The position numbers and the translations under genes are program-made. Of a stretch of DNA of 24,734 bases, positions 485 to 17,815 are shown piece by piece (the first letter of the stretch is position 1; each line of letters starts with the position of its first letter). The notes below the pieces were generated by a model that did not search any database, had not been told where the DNA came from, and saw only the letters and a program-made list of their open reading frames with translations. Origin of the DNA: a virus (lineage: Duplodnaviria > Caudoviricetes); the IMG/VR virus record IMGVR_UViG_3300032305_001326, positions 1-24,734 of that record; one strand, given 5' to 3'.

Positions 485-1258
485 ATGGGATTAAAGCGTT
501 ACATATACAAATCCGGCTTAGATATTATCGCTCCACTCAAATGCGGAACTCGTTGGTTAGAGGGATTTGATGTAGAAAATCGTATACGGACTTTCGGATT
601 ACACCCAACGGATTTACCTAACCATATACATAGTGGTACTACTTTTATATGGAGGCCCGTAAGAGAACATTTTATCTCCGCAATACGAACTGAACTTGTC
701 GCTTTTAAGAAAAAGGATATTTTGGGTGTGATTTCGGAAATTCAATCCGGTGAATGTGGACATTGGTATCCTCATCTATATAGAGATTTATATCCCCTAT
801 GGGAGAAGACCGGCTTTCGATTTCACAAACTTCGAGCTCTATCCGAACTTACTCCATCCGCAGGTGAATTGAAATGGACTTCAAATATGTATAAGTTTGA
901 TTTACCAACTGAATGGGATAGCGTTGAAGCGGCTTTGAGTTCTATTCCATCCAAACACCTTAATCGATTAAATAAACTCATTGGTGAGGAGGAGAAGTGG
1001 CTTAAATCTATGCTCCAATCGCAGTATGTTGTTCCAAGCTGGGAAACATATTCCGATTTGGAAGATTTACTCTTTACGTCTAAGTGTAAAGTAAGGGATT
1101 TGGAAGCGGAAGTTGAACTATTCGATAAAAGATTAAAAACCGAATTGGATAAATTATATATTCAAATACGAGAATTAAAAGATTCAAATACTAAATTACA
1201 AGCTAAGTTAGATTATGCTGAATCAATATTTGGAAAACTACCTATCAAACTAATTTAG
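485..1258 (+). CDS. Divergent sulfotransferase-like protein with C-terminal coiled coil
   Basis: IIAPLKCGTRWL resembles the 5'-PSB loop (PKxGT/S). FIWRPVREHFISA resembles the 3'-PB motif (R-x-P-x-x-R-x-x-S). The last ~65 aa are heptad-like. Confidence 0.5.
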   Translation: MGLKRYIYKSGLDIIAPLKCGTRWLEGFDVENRIRTFGLHPTDLPNHIHSGTTFIWRPVREHFISAIRTELVAFKKKDILGVISEIQSGECGHWYPHLYRDLYPLWEKTGFRFHKLRALSELTPSAGELKWTSNMYKFDLPTEWDSVEAALSSIPSKHLNRLNKLIGEEEKWLKSMLQSQYVVPSWETYSDLEDLLFTSKCKVRDLEAEVELFDKRLKTELDKLYIQIRELKDSNTKLQAKLDYAESIFGKLPIKLI

Positions 1259-2870: not shown

Positions 2871-3140
2871 ATGGGAATAAATTTTAAAAAAATAGCTAAA
2901 GCTTGGATTACAGCAGCTAACCCAACGGAAAAACAATCGGAATTAGCCGAAGCAAGGTGGAGTATATGTGATTCATGTGATAAAAGAAAAACAGTTGCAA
3001 CGATTCCGGTTTGTGGAGAATGTGGATGCCCGCTTAGTAAAAAAATATTTACAATGGAAAATGATGCATGTCCTTTAAACAAATGGTTGGAAGTAGAAAA
3101 AGATTATTTTATTATTAAGAGTAAGAAAACAATTATTTAA
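2871..3140 (+). CDS. Small Cys6 metal-binding protein (DUF6171-like)
   Basis: RWSICDSC...CGECGC...CPLNKW pattern (CxxC, CxxCxC, CPxxKW). Confidence 0.65.
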   Translation: MGINFKKIAKAWITAANPTEKQSELAEARWSICDSCDKRKTVATIPVCGECGCPLSKKIFTMENDACPLNKWLEVEKDYFIIKSKKTII

Positions 3141-3150
3141 TAAAAGTTTA

Positions 3151-3158
3151 TATTTATA
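3151..3158 (+). promoter_or_regulatory. Putative phage late promoter (TATTTATA)
   Basis: Intergenic TATTTATA 20 nt before ATG 3179. The same motif precedes genes at 17312 and 23825. Confidence 0.5.
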
Positions 3159-3178
3159 GGAAACAATAAAGAACATAT

Positions 3179-4816
3179 ATGAAAGCAGTAGTAATAGCGA
3201 CCGATTACGTTAAAGATATAAATGGTGAGTTTAAGGTATTAGAAATGAATACCCAAACAGCTTTACTATTTAAAGATGCAACTAAGTATTTAGATTTGGA
3301 TGGATTAGAACAATTGGTTTCGGATAATGGGATAACTAAAATTGAACTAATTTTACCACAAGTTACGGGTACTAATGTAATAGATACAGAATATACTGAA
3401 ACCGGTTCATTGGGTATATCAATTGAGGGTGCGATTCGTATGCAATATGAATCAAGTAGTGTTAATATAGAAACGCACTATACTACAAAAAATTCTACCA
3501 CCATTCCATTTATAGAAGATAATGATACTACATTAGTTATACGTGTTTCATATGATTCTACCGCTTTAATAGATAGTGTATATTGTGCTGATAATTTTGA
3601 ATTTTTAAAATTAATGTATGATGCAAATCCTACATCAATTCCATCTACATATGTAAATCATACGGATTTAGGATTTGATACAATTGGCGATATTGTTAGA
3701 GATAATGGAGTATATCCAAATTATATAATTAAAGAAAGGTTTCCAACAACAAACTACCAACAATACCCAACGATTCTAAAAATAAATAATTTAGATGAAT
3801 TGAATTCTATTAAATCTAATCTTTTACCAAATACATTATTACAAGAATATGTATTCAATCCAACCGACGTATTTGAAGGAAAATTAAAAACATATAGAGT
3901 TATATCGATGGTATATGGTTCTGAATTGGATATATTAGATTTAACGCATCCATTTGAACATACGAACGGATGTGCATTTGGAGAGACTGTTGATTTCGAT
4001 ACGAATAATACATTAGCTATATGGGAAAGACCTTGCTATATTCAAAAATATTTATCTACCATCGAAGAGAATAATCGTTTTAGGTATCAATTCGATGATG
4101 CATCTAAAATTTTTATGCCGGATGGTTCTATATCAACTGTTCAAAATATTCAATCGGGTTCGGTTTTAAAATCACTTAATTTCGATGGAATGCCATTAGA
4201 TGAATTATTATCTGGTTCCCAAAATTGGAGTAGTAGTTTTTCCGAATTAACCAATGATTTGGAAGTTACAACTACAACTGTTGGCGAGTATTCATCTACT
4301 AATAAAAGTGTATGGATAATTAATTTGGAAATATCTAATGGTTCTAAATTTGCAGATATAGAATATGCTAGATTATTAAGTAAGACAGGTACACAAACCG
4401 AATATAAATTTAATAGATTCTTTGATGTTAATATTGGGGATTATATTATATTATTCAACAATGAAACAAATAGTATACAAGAAGTTAGTGTAACTAATAT
4501 AGAATATTCATATGAAACAATTGATATATTTTCCGTAGATGTTGAACCAATAGATGTTTTATTAACTTCAGAAGAAGGAGTTGAATTCCCTGTATATGCA
4601 ATATATCAACACAATCCACCGGCAGATTGTATTAGGGTATGTTGTTCAAATAGTTACCCTGTAAGTGGTTATCAACAATGTCCAAGTGCAGGTGGTGGTT
4701 GGTGTTACTATTGGCCATATACATATGATGTATGTATAGATGGTTTTTATTATCCTGGAAACTGCTACCAATGTATATCGGCTTGTTTTGGTGAATGTGG
4801 TTTTGCACAAAAATAA
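3179..4816 (+). CDS. Fusion: circularly permuted ATP-grasp-like domain + Hint domain + Cys/Tyr-rich C-terminal peptide
   Basis: The N-terminal ATDYVKDINGEFKVLEMNT (D9...E22-x-N24), YIIK185 and LLQ222EYV are ATP-grasp motifs in permuted order. Residues 304-479 match Hint blocks and end in HN. Residues 480-545 contain 10 Cys and 9 Tyr. Confidence 0.75.
   Translation: MKAVVIATDYVKDINGEFKVLEMNTQTALLFKDATKYLDLDGLEQLVSDNGITKIELILPQVTGTNVIDTEYTETGSLGISIEGAIRMQYESSSVNIETHYTTKNSTTIPFIEDNDTTLVIRVSYDSTALIDSVYCADNFEFLKLMYDANPTSIPSTYVNHTDLGFDTIGDIVRDNGVYPNYIIKERFPTTNYQQYPTILKINNLDELNSIKSNLLPNTLLQEYVFNPTDVFEGKLKTYRVISMVYGSELDILDLTHPFEHTNGCAFGETVDFDTNNTLAIWERPCYIQKYLSTIEENNRFRYQFDDASKIFMPDGSISTVQNIQSGSVLKSLNFDGMPLDELLSGSQNWSSSFSELTNDLEVTTTTVGEYSSTNKSVWIINLEISNGSKFADIEYARLLSKTGTQTEYKFNRFFDVNIGDYIILFNNETNSIQEVSVTNIEYSYETIDIFSVDVEPIDVLLTSEEGVEFPVYAIYQHNPPADCIRVCCSNSYPVSGYQQCPSAGGGWCYYWPYTYDVCIDGFYYPGNCYQCISACFGECGFAQK
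4088..4615 (+). other. Hint (intein-like) domain, predicted C-terminal cleavage only
   Basis: QFDDASKIFMPDGSISTVQNIQSGSVL aligns to block A (CFxxGTxIxMxDGxxxxIEDIxxGDxV) with Gln at position 1. LEISNGSKF, DVNIGDYI, VTNIE and IFSVDVE...IYQHN give blocks B/F/G. The TxxH His is absent and the +1 residue is Pro. Confidence 0.75.
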
Positions 4817-5001: not shown

Positions 5002-5559
5002 ATGGTTATAACAATACTAGCTGAGCCGAGAAGTGGTTCGACTAATTTTACTAATTGGTTTTATTTTAATAAAAACTTTACCACATTGTTCGAACCGGCT
5101 AATTCCGGTTCTAAATGGTTTCAAAGAAATATTGAACCAAAGGATTATAGGTACAAAACCAAACATCTTTGCGTAAAAGAAATATATTATCCAAATATAA
5201 ATTGGGATTCTTTATTATCGATTTCTGATAAAATTATTGTATTATACAGAGAAAATGGTCAAAAGCAATTGGAATCATTTTTATCTGCTATAACTACAAA
5301 TAATTGGTATACGAACTATGTTTATAATATCGAAACAAGCGCATTCATTGATGAAAAAACAAAATACTTTAAAATTTTAAAATCCGAATTTGAAATGAAA
5401 TATGTAAATAGTGAATATTTTACTATTTCATATGAAGAATTATATTTTAAAAATGGAATTGAAAAAGTTAAAAATTATATTGAAATAGATGGATTTGGCG
5501 AATTTCCATTAGGTCAAAAATATAGAATTAATATTGATGATTTAAAAAGTTTAATATAA
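5002..5559 (+). CDS. Sulfotransferase family protein
   Basis: ILAEPRSGSTNF (5'-PSB), LFEP, LYREN..QLESF and ISYEEL. Paralogous layout to 1341..1895. Confidence 0.75.
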   Translation: MVITILAEPRSGSTNFTNWFYFNKNFTTLFEPANSGSKWFQRNIEPKDYRYKTKHLCVKEIYYPNINWDSLLSISDKIIVLYRENGQKQLESFLSAITTNNWYTNYVYNIETSAFIDEKTKYFKILKSEFEMKYVNSEYFTISYEELYFKNGIEKVKNYIEIDGFGEFPLGQKYRINIDDLKSLI

Positions 5560-9362: not shown

Positions 9363-9394
9363 TTTGGTATTCTAATATTTTTTTAGTATATTTG
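9363..9394 (+). promoter_or_regulatory. Bacteroidota-type -33/-7 promoter
   Basis: TTTG (9363-9366), 20 nt, TATATTTG (9387-9394), upstream of uvsE. Confidence 0.75.
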
Positions 9395-9418
9395 GATATA
9401 AAATCTAAAAATATTATT

Positions 9419-10348
9419 ATGAATTTAGGATATGCATGTATTAATATGACAATGGGTAAGAAAGTTACTACTAACCGAACTATGGTTAAAAGAACATTCA
9501 AATCAAAAGGGTTAGACTATGTTTCTGAACTCGCATTACTTAATGCAAAAGATATTATCAAAATTTTAGAGTGGAATCGAATGAATGGAATTAATTTATT
9601 CCGTTTATCATCTGCTCTCATTCCGTGGGGTGATAATATTGATATTACTCAATTAAAAGATTACAAAGAGATTAAATGGGAATTAAAAAAAGCTGGTCTT
9701 TTTGCTAAATTCCATAATATGCGTATTAACTCACATCCAGGTCCATTTAACGTATTAGTTTCACCAAACGAATCGGTTGTACTTAAAACTATCGCTGATT
9801 TAGAATTACATGGTAAAGTATTTGATATGATGGGGTTATCTAAAACAACATATAACAATATTAATATCCATTGTAATGGTGTCTACGGAGATAAAAAATC
9901 CGCATTAGATAGATTCATCAAAAACTTTCAAAGACTCTCTAAATCGGTTCAAAAACGACTTACAATAGAGAATGATGATAAGGCATCTATGTATTCAGTT
10001 AAAGACCTTATGTATGTACATAATGCAATTGGTATTCCTATTGTATTTGATTACCATCATCACCAATTCTGCACCGGCGATTTATCCGAAGAACAAGCCC
10101 TTAAACTGGCATCTACAACTTGGCCTAAAGATATTAAGCAAGAAGTTCACTATTCCGAAAGTAAGGCATTACACGAAAATAACCCAAAAGAAAAGCCACA
10201 AGCTCACTCATTATACATTAACGAATTACCAAATACCTATGGATTAGATTTAGATATTATGGTAGAAGCTAAGGGTAAAGAGTTAGCTATATTACCTTAT
10301 TTAAAATATCAAACAAATGAAAAAGTATCTTGCACAAGCAGCATTTAA
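9419..10348 (+). CDS. uvsE: UV DNA damage endonuclease (UvsE/UVDE)
   Basis: MNLGYACIN, FRLSS, HPGPFNVL, IENDD, VFDYHHH, HYSES, AHS and DIMVEAKGKE motifs. Start moved to ATG 9419. Confidence 0.92.
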   Translation: MNLGYACINMTMGKKVTTNRTMVKRTFKSKGLDYVSELALLNAKDIIKILEWNRMNGINLFRLSSALIPWGDNIDITQLKDYKEIKWELKKAGLFAKFHNMRINSHPGPFNVLVSPNESVVLKTIADLELHGKVFDMMGLSKTTYNNINIHCNGVYGDKKSALDRFIKNFQRLSKSVQKRLTIENDDKASMYSVKDLMYVHNAIGIPIVFDYHHHQFCTGDLSEEQALKLASTTWPKDIKQEVHYSESKALHENNPKEKPQAHSLYINELPNTYGLDLDIMVEAKGKELAILPYLKYQTNEKVSCTSSI

Positions 10349-10715
10349 ATCATCATCGAATGATTTAAAATATTCAATGTATATTGGAAGATGGCAACCT
10401 TGGCACGAAGGACATCGTTGGTTGATTGACCAAAGATTAAATGAAGGTAAAAAGGTTTTAATTTGTATTAGAGATGTAGAGCCTGATGAGAAGAATCCGT
10501 GGACTCCATTAGAAGTTTTACAAAATTTATCAAATGAGTTATTAGATATAATTCAAGAAGGTAAGGTTAAAATTATTATCATACCTGATATCGAATCAAT
10601 TAATATTGGTAGAGGAGTTGGATATGATGTAATTGAACATTGTCCACCCGATGAAATTAAAGAAATATCAGCCACAGCTATCCGAAATCAAATGAAAGAG
10701 GAAGGTAAATTATGA
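10317..10715 (+). CDS. Small HxGH nucleotidyltransferase (cytidylyltransferase-like superfamily)
   Basis: IGRWQPWHEGH, NPW, GRGVGY and ISATAIR (KMSKS-equivalent). Confidence 0.8.
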   Translation: MKKYLAQAAFKSSSNDLKYSMYIGRWQPWHEGHRWLIDQRLNEGKKVLICIRDVEPDEKNPWTPLEVLQNLSNELLDIIQEGKVKIIIIPDIESINIGRGVGYDVIEHCPPDEIKEISATAIRNQMKEEGKL

Positions 10716-10924
10716 TAGTAGAACGTAAGAGACACATTGCTAAAACCATCTCATATCGTATTTTAAGTACCATAATTGGATTCTTATTAATGTGGTTGAT
10801 AAGTGGTTCAATTAAAGTTGGAGCAGCATTTGGAGTAGCAGAGTTGATTTATAAACCCATTCAGTATTATATTCACGAAAGAATATGGTATAAATGGATT
10901 AAATATGGTTTAAAAAATAAATAA
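10712..10924 (+). CDS. DUF2061-like small membrane protein
   Basis: RHIAKTISYRILST...YYIHERIWYKWIKYG signature. ATGA overlap with the upstream gene. Confidence 0.75.
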   Translation: MIVERKRHIAKTISYRILSTIIGFLLMWLISGSIKVGAAFGVAELIYKPIQYYIHERIWYKWIKYGLKNK

Positions 10925-11038: not shown

Positions 11039-11674
11039 ATGAAATTAATCGTAGACAAAACATCAAATGGATTAACTAATCCAGAGTTTATAAAACATCT
11101 AAAAACGCCTGTACCTAAATCAGAATTAACTCAATTTGAAGCTGATATTTTAAAAGATACTTTATTTGCGGCATTAAAGGGAATGGGTGGCGTTGGATTA
11201 TCTGCAAACCAAATTGGAGTTAATAAGAGAGCTTGTGTTATTAAATTTAATGATACTGAATTATTTTTATTAAATCCTATTATAACAGAACGTTCTAAAG
11301 ATGGGTTCTTATTTTATGAAGGATGTTTATCAATTCCATCAACAATGGAAAAACCTATAAGAACAATTAGAGCTAATTATATTGTAGTACAAACCGATAA
11401 TTTGGGTGAAATTAGATTTGAAATAAACCCAGAAGAAGATAGAGCTGGAGATAAAATATCCGAAGATACTATGAAAACAGTTATTGCTCAGCATGAAATT
11501 GACCATTTGGATGGTATCACTATCAAAGATAGAGTATATTCAACGACTGTTGTTAAAAAGCAAGAGTATGGTAGAAACGATAAGGTTATAATGAAATCAC
11601 CCGATGGAGAACTAATTGAAGTTAAGGTTAAAAAAGCAAACAATTATTTTTTACAAGGATATGAAATAGTATAA
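11039..11674 (+). CDS. def: Peptide deformylase with C-terminal extension
   Basis: All three motifs are present: GVGLSANQIG, EGCLSIP and QHEIDHLDG. Confidence 0.95.
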   Translation: MKLIVDKTSNGLTNPEFIKHLKTPVPKSELTQFEADILKDTLFAALKGMGGVGLSANQIGVNKRACVIKFNDTELFLLNPIITERSKDGFLFYEGCLSIPSTMEKPIRTIRANYIVVQTDNLGEIRFEINPEEDRAGDKISEDTMKTVIAQHEIDHLDGITIKDRVYSTTVVKKQEYGRNDKVIMKSPDGELIEVKVKKANNYFLQGYEIV

Positions 11675-12614: not shown

Positions 12615-14321
12615 ATGGTATTATTAGGTATTTCCGCATTTTATCACGATTCTGCGGTATGTTTATTTGAAGATGGTAAAGTAATAGCAGCTATTGAAGA
12701 AGAAAAGTTATCTGGCATAAAGCACGATAACTCTTTTCCAATTAAAGCAATTGAATGGGTTTTAGAATATTCTAAAAAAACTATATCAGATATTGATACT
12801 ATATGTTGGTATGAGGACCCGCAATTAAAATACGATAGAGTAAAAAATACTTTAGGTAAACATTGGTGGAAAAATAGAAAGACTTGGAAATTATTTAAAG
12901 AGGATTTTGAAAGTAAAGAAGGAAATTTAACTACATATTTAGCTAATAAATTAAATTTTGTAGGTAATATTCAATATGTAAAACACCATTATTCTCATTT
13001 AGCATTTTCATATTATACATCACCATTTCACGATGCAATTGGTATATCAATCGATGGTGTTGGAGAATGGGAAACGGCATTAGCTGTAAGATGTAAAGAT
13101 AATCAATTTGAAGAAATAAATTCATTACTATTTCCAAACTCATTGGGATTAGTATATTCCACTATAACTGCATATTTAGGATTCAAACCAAATAATGGCG
13201 AATATAAAGTTATGGGGTTAGCACCATATGGAGATGCTTCCAAATATAAGCACATTTTTGATAAAATGTTTAGGTTTGATAGAGAAGGTGTTATCCAAAT
13301 AAATCAAAAATATTTTACTTGGCAATACTCTAATACCGATATGTACACATATGAATTGGTAAAATTAATTGGATTAGAACCAAGAGAACCCGAATCAAAA
13401 ATAGAACAACATCATATGGATTTAGCTGCGGCTTTACAAATGTGGTATGAGAGTTGTTTTTACTTTTTTGTAAATAATTGTATGCAAAAAGTTGAAACCA
13501 CTAACTTAGTATTGGGTGGAGGCTCTGCTTATAATGGAACAGCTAATGGTAAGATACAAAAACATACATCAGCTAATAATTTATGGATACCATTTGCACC
13601 ATCCGATGCAGGCTCTACAATTGGCGCTTGTTTATATTATTGGCATAATATATTAGATAACCCTAAAGTGATAGGAGGCGATAATCAATCCCCATATTTA
13701 GGACCTGAATGGAGTAATAAAGAAATAACTGATATTATTCTAAAAAATAGAAATAAAGATAATAAATTAAATGCGATGTATTATGAAGCAACTGATATGC
13801 TATGTGAAGAAGTTGCAAAATTAATCAATGAAGGTAATATTATAGGATGGTTTCAAAGTAGAACCGAATTTGGTGCGAGAGCGTTAGGTAATCGTTCTAT
13901 ATTAGCTAATCCACATTTACCGGATGTTAGGGATAGAATTAATAAGGTTGTCAAAAAGAGAGAGATGTTTAGACCATTTGCTCCATCGGTAACATTTGAA
14001 GATTATGAAAAATATTTCTCATCCGAATCGGAAGTTCCATATATGAATCAAGTAGTTAAAGTTACTGATTACAAATCTATACCATCCGTAACGCACGTTG
14101 ATGGTTCTGCTCGAATTCAAACTGTAAAAAGAGAATCAAATCCATTATATTATGATTTGTTAAAAGAGTTTGAAAAAATAAGTGGTACACCAATATTATT
14201 AAATACTTCTTTCAATCTAAGAGGACATACAATGACAAATGACCCACATAAAGCAATTTGGACATTCCTTAATTGTGATATGGACTATTTGGTATTGGGT
14301 AATTATTTGATAAGTAAATAA
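12615..14321 (+). CDS. O-carbamoyltransferase, NodU/CmcH/TobZ family
   Basis: LGISAFYHDSA, HHYSH, IDGVGE, EYKVMGLAPYG, LGGGSAYNG, PSDAG, EFGARALGNRS, KKREMFRPFAP, HVDGSARIQTV and LLNTSFN. Confidence 0.95.
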   Translation: MVLLGISAFYHDSAVCLFEDGKVIAAIEEEKLSGIKHDNSFPIKAIEWVLEYSKKTISDIDTICWYEDPQLKYDRVKNTLGKHWWKNRKTWKLFKEDFESKEGNLTTYLANKLNFVGNIQYVKHHYSHLAFSYYTSPFHDAIGISIDGVGEWETALAVRCKDNQFEEINSLLFPNSLGLVYSTITAYLGFKPNNGEYKVMGLAPYGDASKYKHIFDKMFRFDREGVIQINQKYFTWQYSNTDMYTYELVKLIGLEPREPESKIEQHHMDLAAALQMWYESCFYFFVNNCMQKVETTNLVLGGGSAYNGTANGKIQKHTSANNLWIPFAPSDAGSTIGACLYYWHNILDNPKVIGGDNQSPYLGPEWSNKEITDIILKNRNKDNKLNAMYYEATDMLCEEVAKLINEGNIIGWFQSRTEFGARALGNRSILANPHLPDVRDRINKVVKKREMFRPFAPSVTFEDYEKYFSSESEVPYMNQVVKVTDYKSIPSVTHVDGSARIQTVKRESNPLYYDLLKEFEKISGTPILLNTSFNLRGHTMTNDPHKAIWTFLNCDMDYLVLGNYLISK

Positions 14322-17311: not shown

Positions 17312-17815
17312 ATGGATTCAAAATTATTAGTAGGTTTAATTAAGGAGGTTGTTAAAAGTGAAGTAAAACAACAAGTTAAAGAAGAATTAGCTAAGTTAAT
17401 TAAATCTGGTGCAGTTACATTAAACTCACAAAGAAAAACAACATCTCCCTCAATGAGAGAGATGGCGGAAGTTACATCTACGCAAGTTAGAAAACAACAA
17501 CCAATTGTACAACAGCAAAGACCTCATCAATCTCAAAAGGAATTTACAAAAGACCCAATGATTAATGAGATACTTAATATGACACAACCATTTACTTCCG
17601 AACAAAGAAAAGAAGGTGCACAAGCGGTGGGTAGTGTGTTAGATATGATTAAACCAGAATTAAGAGTTGATGAAAGTGAGTGGGAAACAATGGACTTTAG
17701 AGAGGTAGATGTACCATCTAATATTCCAAACTTTGAATCAACTGGCGATGGATTGCAAGATGCTACGATAAAAGCATTGACGAGAGATTATAGAGAATTA
17801 GTTAAAAGATTTTAA
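17312..17815 (+). CDS. Hypothetical phage protein
   Basis: 167-aa ORF with an N-terminal LIKEVVKSEVKQ helix and a low-complexity middle, within the structural module. Confidence 0.7.
   Translation: MDSKLLVGLIKEVVKSEVKQQVKEELAKLIKSGAVTLNSQRKTTSPSMREMAEVTSTQVRKQQPIVQQQRPHQSQKEFTKDPMINEILNMTQPFTSEQRKEGAQAVGSVLDMIKPELRVDESEWETMDFREVDVPSNIPNFESTGDGLQDATIKALTRDYRELVKRF

Follow-up and report, generated by a model that had tools for sequence, protein, structure and literature searches.

A phage protein family joining a permuted ATP-grasp fold, a Hint domain and a lysine-bearing, cysteine-rich tail: a possible self-processing scaffold

Introduction

What would a bacteriophage do with a protein that looks like an amide ligase, a crippled intein and a small cysteine-rich peptide, all made as one chain? 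The question is raised by a gene on a 24,734-nucleotide stretch of viral DNA (Duplodnaviria; Caudoviricetes; IMG/VR record IMGVR_UViG_3300032305_001326, positions 1 to 24,734), hereafter the window, which is a fragment of an uncultured phage amounting to about 13% of a genome by CheckV estimate. The reading that we favour, with a probability of roughly 0.4, is that its product, the hub protein P0001, is a single-use self-processing scaffold, in which the ligase domain would modify a lysine of the protein's own tail, the Hint (hedgehog/intein) domain would cut after Asn479, and the tail would be freed. An original prediction made from the sequence alone had read the gene as an enzyme, an autoprotease and a cargo in one polypeptide. 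The three-part anatomy stands, but the element common to the tails is a lysine, the Hint domain could act only at its C-terminal end, and the gene is not alone. Nucleotide coordinates are positions of the window and residue numbers are those of P0001; the features are collected in Table 1.

The gene family

The open reading frame (ORF) is not a chance one, since a word-indexed protein search gave 129 homologues at E<=1e-3, none of them carrying a name, and, when 1.84 billion representatives were searched, a profile of the N-terminal 300 residues (N-domain) reached 366 clusters (50% identity). Throughout these 366 clusters the carriers are phage or metagenome contigs only. Among the best 150 clusters, full-length N-domain matches begin at residue 1 of their protein, and the domain always opens a Hint-bearing protein, a few short matches having the look of fragments. 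Seventy-five hub-related loci were collected, from IMG/VR contigs of up to 310 kb. Pfam gave no family for P0001 at E<=1, no PHROGs model matched it, and tblastn against 50,697 deposited phage genomes found no match, hence no cultured phage. So many clusters, with neither a Pfam nor a PHROGs model and absent from the deposited genomes, point to a common phage function unnamed so far.

In an alignment of 112 sequences (A2), R122, D126, N176, P180, N181, K185, K212, Q222 and E223 are invariant, and D9, E22, N24, H478 and N479 are conserved in at least 90%. A second alignment, of 37 diverse N-domains (A3), has D9, E22, N24, R122, Y125, D126, D132, P180, N181 and K185 invariant. The model of the full-length protein reached a predicted local distance difference test score (pLDDT) of 87.2 and a predicted template modelling score (pTM) of 0.80.

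When searched against BFVD, the full model returned mostly Hint-bearing viral proteins. The top match, A0A1C3NFC6, is a 506-aa viral UniProt entry aligned over 462 columns of the whole model (Foldseek E 6e-13), and it may be a member of the family already in UniProt. Metagenomes from freshwater and lakes, across many studies, contain DNA near-identical to the window. RNA contigs of 151-309 nt from four freshwater (lake, river) metatranscriptome libraries lie on the hub gene with 0-16 differences (90-100% identity; mapped region 2871-4816), DNA carry-over being possible; one 258-nt metatranscriptome piece covers the junction of the terminal His-Asn (HN) and the tail, which, with the same possibility of carry-over, does not imply transcription. 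The T4 late-promoter motif TATAAATA was uninformative, with 4 matches against 11.3 expected.

A permuted ATP-grasp fold

Residues 1-300 modelled alone gave a pLDDT of 87.7. All 39 Foldseek matches listed for this domain at E<=1e-3 are chains of the glutathionylspermidine synthase (GspS), YgiC/YjfC, or (homo)glutathione or trypanothione synthetase type, the best being E. coli YgiC (E 3e-6, probability 1.00), while D-Ala-D-Ala ligase reached E 4e-3 only. The modelled domain has the ATP-grasp fold with permuted strand order: the strands that close a classical ATP-grasp domain open that of P0001, which gives the picture of a circular permutation. It carries an acidic-x(12-13)-E-x-N motif of the Mg2+-binding kind (D9, E22, N24), for which the supporting alignments are statistically weak. 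With hhalign, YgiC 101-122 was aligned over 22 columns at a weak E of 0.082, pairing D9 with D102, E22 with E115 and N24 with N117; the first 30 residues matched the biotin-carboxylase motif 'EF..D..G..YFIEMNTR', again weakly (E 0.5-1.1); and the N-domain profile gave ATP-grasp motif matches among PDB sequences below significance only. These weak sequence matches, to YgiC and to biotin carboxylase, all converge on one motif.

At the level of the predicted fold, then, assignment of the N-domain to the permuted ATP-grasp proteins of the peptide/amine-ligase clade is supported, as the original prediction had proposed in likening it to glutathionylspermidine synthase. The residues that it had pointed out (D9, E22, N24, IIK185, Q222-E223-Y224 and H478-N479), and a tail of aa 480-545 with 10 Cys and 9 Tyr, are all in the translation. 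It had also remarked on a missing Gly-rich loop, and we likewise saw no Gly-rich lid by eye, R122, K185 and K212 being invariant in A2.

The hub N-domain shares with YgiC/YjfC, GspS and eukaryotic glutathione synthetase both the fold and the permuted order, with D...E-x-N before the ATP-binding part. It differs from the GspS clade in its size (about 300 aa against 380-620, the N-terminal ~95-120 residues missing), in its low identity (9-14%) and in being fused to a Hint domain and a tail; a search of the window with Pfam GSP_synth (PF03738) gave no match, whereas the E. coli and Caulobacter controls were matched. The chemistry expected of this clade is the joining of a carboxylate and an amine into an amide via an acyl phosphate, and the D/E/N, R and K that the hub domain keeps invariant speak for catalysis, as far as conservation can tell. 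In RefSeq, YgiC is named 'peptide--spermidine ligase'; its primary paper, as cited in PMC12568646, is Pederick 2023.

A Hint domain that keeps its terminal His-Asn

The original prediction had described a Hint-like segment ending in HN, and the structure search indeed returned the Hint superfamily fold for aa 303-479, ending at N479: residues ~300-480 matched the Mtu RecA mini-intein, the hedgehog Hint domain, a Clostridium bacterial intein-like (BIL) domain and Tetrahymena BIL2 (E 1e-6 to 8e-6). Among 263 family proteins surveyed, 241 have a match to a Hint profile; 39 of these matches were partial and were dropped, which leaves 202 that extend to the profile's end. The terminal HN is present in 190 of these 202, the others having Asn with a shifted or Ser neighbour, and P0001 itself ends the domain with the His-Asn of inteins.

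The other intein residues are largely gone. The column of residue 303, corresponding to intein position 1, holds Tyr in 84 of 112 sequences and not the Cys, Ser or Thr of an intein; that of residue 304 holds H, Q, S, N, D or K, no nucleophile dominating. The residue after HN (+1) is most often P (47), Y (31) or A (31), and is C, S or T in 10 of 194 proteins; in P0001 it is P480, again not an intein nucleophile. By eye, TxxH of block B seems to be replaced (F/A-D-I), and the position of the block F His is taken by the invariant D459. At most, Asn cyclisation at the C-terminal junction is the one Hint reaction that would still be possible. The retention of HN where other intein residues have been lost suggests that this C-terminal reaction is presumably in use.

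The closest comparators are BIL domains (BIL2 of the Tetrahymena BUBL1 locus, 6tmm/6y75; C. thermocellum, 2lwy) and the hedgehog Hint domain (1at0). BIL and hedgehog domains form a Cys1 thioester at their N-terminal junction, whereas the hub domain lacks a nucleophile at position 1, keeps the C-terminal His-Asn alone and has its cargo downstream.

A true intein with splicing was considered and rejected, as nucleophiles are absent at both position 1 and +1. A polymorphic toxin with a PT-HINT domain was also set aside, the ligase fold starting at residue 1 and Cys1 being absent. No known toxin domain was matched in the P0001 tail (Pfam at E<=1; phmmer against PDB sequences), and matches to PF07591 are confined to the extra Hint domains of distant relatives.

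A variable tail with a constant lysine

The tail is modelled with less confidence (pLDDT 58-72) and is, by the identities of the aligned sequences, the fastest-evolving part of the hub protein. Mean identity to P0001 is 0.52 in the N-domain, 0.37 in the Hint domain and 0.31 in the tail (0.22 without Cys); the corresponding figures for the 28 closest sequences are 0.70, 0.64 and 0.49 (0.39 without Cys). The expectation that the region after HN would be hypervariable yet Cys-rich in homologues was thus borne out. Tail length ranges from ~28 to ~150 residues. Neither phmmer of the tail against PDB sequences (0 matches at E<=10) nor an Atlas features search gave a usable match.

When 10 of the 202 proteins are set aside for their extra Hint domains and 5 for their short tails, 187 remain, whose tails contain four or more Cys. 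An even number of Cys is present in 181 of these tails and an odd number in 6; the values are 6, 8, 10, 12, 14 or 16, of which 6 and 10 are common. This parity, and the frequency of 6 and 10, fit disulfides and do not fit a fixed zinc site. A zinc domain was accordingly rejected as the principal interpretation of the tail, and the fixed structural zinc tail that the original prediction had named as its adverse case was not found, the counts running from 6 to 16. The residues over-represented in the tails are Cys (27x), Trp (3.1x), Gly (2.6x), Pro (2.2x) and Tyr (1.6x); charged residues are under-represented.

Against this depletion of charge, no tail lacks lysine (0 of 187), and 119 have exactly one. 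Among the 177 tails of up to 160 residues, 8 would be expected to be free of Lys at the lysine frequency of the protein body, and 34-73 at tail-like frequencies; none is, while 87 are free of Arg. Where the lysine is single, it lies 0-3 residues from the end in 96 of the 119 tails and is the very last residue in 63. The number of residues after the tail lysine varies from 0 to 11. In the sequences at hand, what all tails share is lysine and not the cysteine framework.

Variant architectures in relatives

Long forms (23 of the 187 tails) continue directly after the tail lysine with S-D-x-x-x-K-x-N-I..., and in 11 of 12 examples this extension is a Peptidase_S74 domain (best E 2e-5). At the 'K|SD' junction, SD was aligned to the first residue of 3gud, the GA-1 chaperone in its released form (E 0.11), and after self-cleavage the long forms would end at the same lysine as the short ones. 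P0001 has no Peptidase_S74 domain, as it stops at K545. S74 intramolecular chaperones are otherwise typical of tail fibres and spikes; in GA-1 gp12 (3gud) and endosialidase S74 follows a triple beta-helix, whereas in the long-form relatives it follows a Cys-rich mini-domain.

Other relatives have 1-3 canonical, Pfam-recognised Cys1 Hint domains after the family's own: P0176 reads HN-[29-aa Cys-rich tail]-[Hint]-HN-KK, and P0231 reads HN-YE-[Hint]-HN-RPMIGV-[Hint]-HN-K. The tandem Cys1 Hint domains of P0231, P0246, P0251 and P0176 mostly have Lys, not Cys, Ser or Thr, at +1 ('VHN-K'), a combination unlike inteins and unlike known BIL domains. Finally, Cys-free relatives terminate in 'HNK', 'HNKK', 'HNKPKQPKK' or 'HNAKEEV'. 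The Cys-free forms ending in K again make the lysine, not the cystine framework, the common denominator, and three different self-cleaving devices at the two ends of the tail favour its excision.

A C-terminal tag on neighbouring genes

Just upstream of the hub lies the gene of a small six-Cys protein, P0122, with homologues in 72 of the 75 loci by hidden Markov model (HMM) and in 59 by BLAST, always on the same strand as the hub, directly upstream of it in some lineages and directly downstream in others. The protein, which is phrog_13558 with weak DUF6171 and DZR_2 matches, has the pattern CxxC...CxxCxC...C, with C33, C36, C48, C51, C53, C67, R29, K58 and W72 invariant. Its extreme C-terminus reads K-x-K-(T/S)-hydrophobic-hydrophobic in 28 of 29 sequences.

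A C-terminal tag of this kind is common to unrelated protein families near the hub. Its consensus is K-(S/T)-(L/I)-(I/L), strictly C-terminal; in 253 distinct proteins position -3 is K in 70%, -2 is S/T in 67%, -1 is L/I/F in 90% and the last residue is I/L in 91%. When the tag is defined strictly as a C-terminal [KRNQ][KTSNRVE][ILFMVT][ILFMVY] and counted in the 75 loci and the window, 321 of 1270 ORFs terminate with it, compared with a rate of 1.4% at any one internal position. It is family-specific, being present in 90% of the six-Cys proteins, 83% of a 2-oxoglutarate (2OG)-Fe(II) oxygenase family, 96% of a 427-aa family, 100% of two small families and 0% of many others. It also clusters around the hub: in one nearly whole contig 6 of 20 ORFs within 10 kb of the hub are tagged against 2 of 184 elsewhere (p 1e-5), and in a second 3 of 11 against 9 of 354 (p 0.004).

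The 2OG-Fe(II) oxygenases (PF13640, E 2e-11; for example L034:8471-9031) number 83 copies in 50 of the 75 loci, mostly downstream of the hub. Two homologues from hub-free cultured phages lack the tag (n=2). Two further families, of ~243 aa (43 loci) and ~197 aa (35 loci), have a sulfotransferase-like N-terminal P-loop, for which Pfam support is weak (E 0.064).

On the G004 contig (L097-L106; 199 kb, 60% complete), the hub lies at 68739-70250 with six tagged neighbours, and the six-Cys partner was undetected; it may not be obligatory, or it may lie in the missing part of the genome.

A proposed mechanism and its rivals

We propose that the ATP-grasp domain would put an amide-linked group on the single lysine of its own tail, this lysine being a tethered amine acceptor chemically like the polyamine amine of the closest enzymes. 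The tagged neighbours (2OG-Fe(II) oxygenases, sulfotransferase-like proteins, other enzymes and the six-Cys protein) would dock via the tag and tailor the still-attached tail by hydroxylation and perhaps sulfation. Cyclisation of Asn479 would then break the N479-P480 bond and free the tail, which, after lysis, could oxidise into a disulfide-rich peptide acting outside the cell.

Several points weigh against this scaffold. Cleavage, ATP use and modification we only infer. The ATP-binding lysines of the N-domain are, from the alignments, without firm assignment, and the alteration of blocks B and F means that Asn cyclisation is perhaps slow or absent. The lysine does not have a fixed position: it is internal (15-33 residues from the end) in ~23 of the 119 single-lysine tails, and the last five residues are free of it in 35 of the 187. 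Tails of 2-6 residues between tandem Hint domains, as in P0231, poorly fit a peptide product, and S74, being otherwise typical of trimeric tail fibres, favours a structural role. Disulfide-rich products and cytoplasmic tailoring enzymes belong to different redox settings, and just 2 genes of the window (2871-3140 and 5002-5559) carry the strict tag.

The alternatives differ from the scaffold mainly in the carboxylate donor and in the fate of the tail, and two of them survive better than the rest, although we regard each as improbable. One takes the tag as a substrate. In such a virus-only conjugation system, the GspS-type ligase would join the C-terminal carboxylate of tagged partners to the tail lysine, and the Hint domain would release the conjugate; the six-Cys protein (...KKTII-COOH) would be the first partner, and what is set free would be the mini-domain with its partner attached (partner~mini-domain). 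The phage would then have a self-consuming counterpart of ubiquitin/Pup-type tagging or of LysW/LysX, with the acceptor lysine on a disulfide-rich hypervariable mini-domain; were this unlikely reading true, ubiquitin-like tagging would have been built, in viruses only, from an ATP-grasp enzyme and a crippled intein. The closest enzymes couple the C-terminal carboxylate of a peptide to a primary amine, the tag stands only at the C-terminus and is kept in unrelated families (253 proteins), every tail (187 of 187) offers a lysine, and the partner is small, Cys-rich and linked to the hub in 72 of 75 loci. The missing tag of the two oxygenase homologues from hub-free cultured phages (n=2) points the same way. 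One hub lysine would nevertheless face up to 6-8 tagged proteins per genome, a disulfide-rich module on cytoplasmic oxygenases has no obvious use, and on G004 (60% complete) the hub and its six tagged neighbours are found with the six-Cys partner absent.

The other, held at similarly low odds, makes P0001 a virion or adsorption protein. Its Cys- and aromatic-rich hypervariable tail would be a host-binding knob, either retained by a structural protein or matured from one, assembly would be served by the Hint and S74 modules, and the ATP-grasp fold would be a scaffold or assembly factor. This would account for the S74 domains on 23 of the 187 tails, for a tail that evolves fastest and is rich in W, G, P and Y, and for an even Cys count, which suits an extracellular domain; baseplate genes do lie within the same window. 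The hub, however, lies 13 kb from the baseplate block with enzyme genes around it, both here and in the 75 loci, neither fibre-like repeats nor a coiled coil are seen in the model, and the terminal HN is kept without the other intein residues. A catalytic role is favoured by the ligase fold's invariant D/E/N, R and K.

Macrocyclisation is less probable still. Here the Hint domain would free the N-terminus of the tail, and the C-terminal or an acidic carboxylate of the tail would be activated by the ligase, or by the thioester of a downstream Cys1 Hint domain in relatives, and closed onto either the lysine or the newly freed alpha-amine to form a cystine-rich cyclic peptide. ATP-grasp enzymes do make amide bonds, K is the very last residue in 63 of the 119 single-lysine tails, and relatives have self-cleaving modules on both sides of the tail (Hint upstream; S74 or Cys1 Hint downstream). 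A ring is difficult to reconcile with the 0 to 11 residues after the lysine and with the frequent Pro at +1 (47 of 194), is impossible for tails of 1-9 residues, and leaves the ligase kept in relatives that already have a downstream Hint domain.

Finally, we think it just as doubtful that the ligase supplies the infected cell with a metabolite of the glutathione or polyamine type, with Hint domain and tail as a regulatory or autoinhibitory appendage or as a pearlin-like handle releasing a lysine-derived molecule: the close folds among the matches listed are all small-molecule or peptide ligases, phages 44RR and phiPMW have canonical GspS homologues, and minimal relatives ending in 'HNK' would free a single, perhaps modified, lysine, but the N-domain is without the first ~95-120 residues of YgiC and glutathione synthetases, always stands at residue 1 of a Hint-bearing protein (best 150 clusters, short matches looking like fragments), and 187 elaborate, rapidly evolving Cys-rich tails would be unexplained.

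Relation to known systems

Each part of the hub protein, and each idea in the proposed scaffold, has a precedent. Among peptides made on the ribosome and modified after translation (RiPPs), borosins are enzyme-precursor fusions, graspetides are made by ATP-grasp ligases and pearlins are built on scaffolds; further precedents are the Hint-mediated release of polymorphic toxins, BIL-mediated conjugation in Tetrahymena and LysW/LysX. By analogy with these RiPP systems, the hub would have enzyme and peptide in one chain, tailoring enzymes nearby and proteolytic release. It would differ from the fusions in its built-in Hint release, in place of a separate protease, and from RiPP systems in general in that the recognition tag is on the enzymes, not on the peptide. 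The graspetide comparison made in the original prediction found no support in the fold search: the nearest listed folds are peptide/amine ligases, a clade different from the microviridin-type ligases, none of which is among the fold matches listed, and the candidate precursor is fused to the hub, not separate. LysW/LysX and RimK/S6, whose ligases have as substrate the C-terminal end of a ribosomal protein or of a small zinc-ribbon protein, may be likened to the hub and its partner by gene linkage, but they are classical and not permuted ATP-grasps, with a different acceptor and with acidic C-terminal motifs that differ from the tag. Canonical GspS genes are known from phages 44RR and phiPMW and are distinct from the hub architecture.

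The original prediction knew of no description of such an architecture, and in full-text literature (subscription journals being outside its coverage) we too found no paper describing an ATP-grasp, Hint and Cys-rich tail combination. The papers found describe neither the combination itself nor a Hint domain confined to its C-terminal reaction, a lysine tethered in this way or a tag borne by the enzymes.

If the tail is indeed modified and self-released, the hub would be a new route to stable cysteine-rich peptides, with ligase, protease and substrate in one chain, and tailoring enzymes would be recruited by a tag that they carry themselves. One might speculate that in lakes and seas such peptides could help in recognising hosts, in competition or in signalling. 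Protein engineers, too, would have a use for a Hint domain cutting at its C-terminal end only and for a ligase whose lysine acceptor is tethered.

Other features of the window

Table 1. Coordinates of the hub gene, its predicted parts and its neighbours in the window
Feature	Position	Strand	Basis or remark
Hub protein P0001, ligase-Hint-tail ORF	3179..4816	+	545 aa + stop, ATG start
Circularly permuted ATP-grasp-like domain, aa 1-298 (GspS / YgiC-YjfC / eukaryotic glutathione synthetase type)	3179..4072	+	Fold match
D9...E22-x-N24, aa 9-24, predicted Mg2+/ATP-binding strands at the extreme N-terminus	3203..3250	+	Conservation and weak alignments
Hint fold, aa 303-479, N-terminal nucleophile absent	4085..4615	+	Fold match
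H478-N479, predicted Asn-cyclisation site, cut N479/P480	4610..4615	+	HN conservation
Tail PPADC...FAQK, aa 480-545, 66 aa (10 Cys, 9 Tyr, 1 Lys), predicted disulfide-rich mini-domain	4616..4813	+	
K545, sole lysine of the tail and C-terminal residue, proposed tethered amine acceptor	4811..4813	+	Lysine conservation
Partner P0122, 89 aa, six-Cys, zinc-ribbon-like, ends ...KKTII	2871..3140	+	Just upstream of hub
Neighbour, 185 aa, ends ...LKSLI (strict tag)	5002..5559	+	Family in 35/75 loci
Neighbour, 257 aa, ends ...PIKLI (loose tag, outside the strict pattern)	485..1258	+	Homologues in 9 loci

The product of the tagged 185-aa gene had no Pfam match; its untagged paralogue, at 1341-1895, has a weak Sulfotransfer_3 match (E 0.064).

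The rest of the window encodes gp25- and gp6-like baseplate proteins, Hsp20, peptide deformylase, UvdE and a carbamoyltransferase. The nearest relative of the gp6-like protein is that of Microcystis phage Mel-JY01 (43%), followed by Flavobacterium 'immuto' phages (40%). The peptide deformylase (11039-11674) and the 568-aa Nol-like carbamoyltransferase (12615-14321) are auxiliary genes of a freshwater myovirus. Just upstream of the gp25-like gene, a 167-aa ORF (17312-17815) gave a borderline match to PF23169 (HalD, 'Halogenase D'), scoring 27.0 bits where the cut-off is 26 (E 3.5e-6). The gene of the UvdE UV-endonuclease (9392-10348; PF03851, E 9e-64) shares 32 bases with a 132-aa cytidylyltransferase-like ORF (10317-10715), which is followed by the gene of a DUF2061 membrane protein (10712-10924), and the latter two are linked in 16 related loci.

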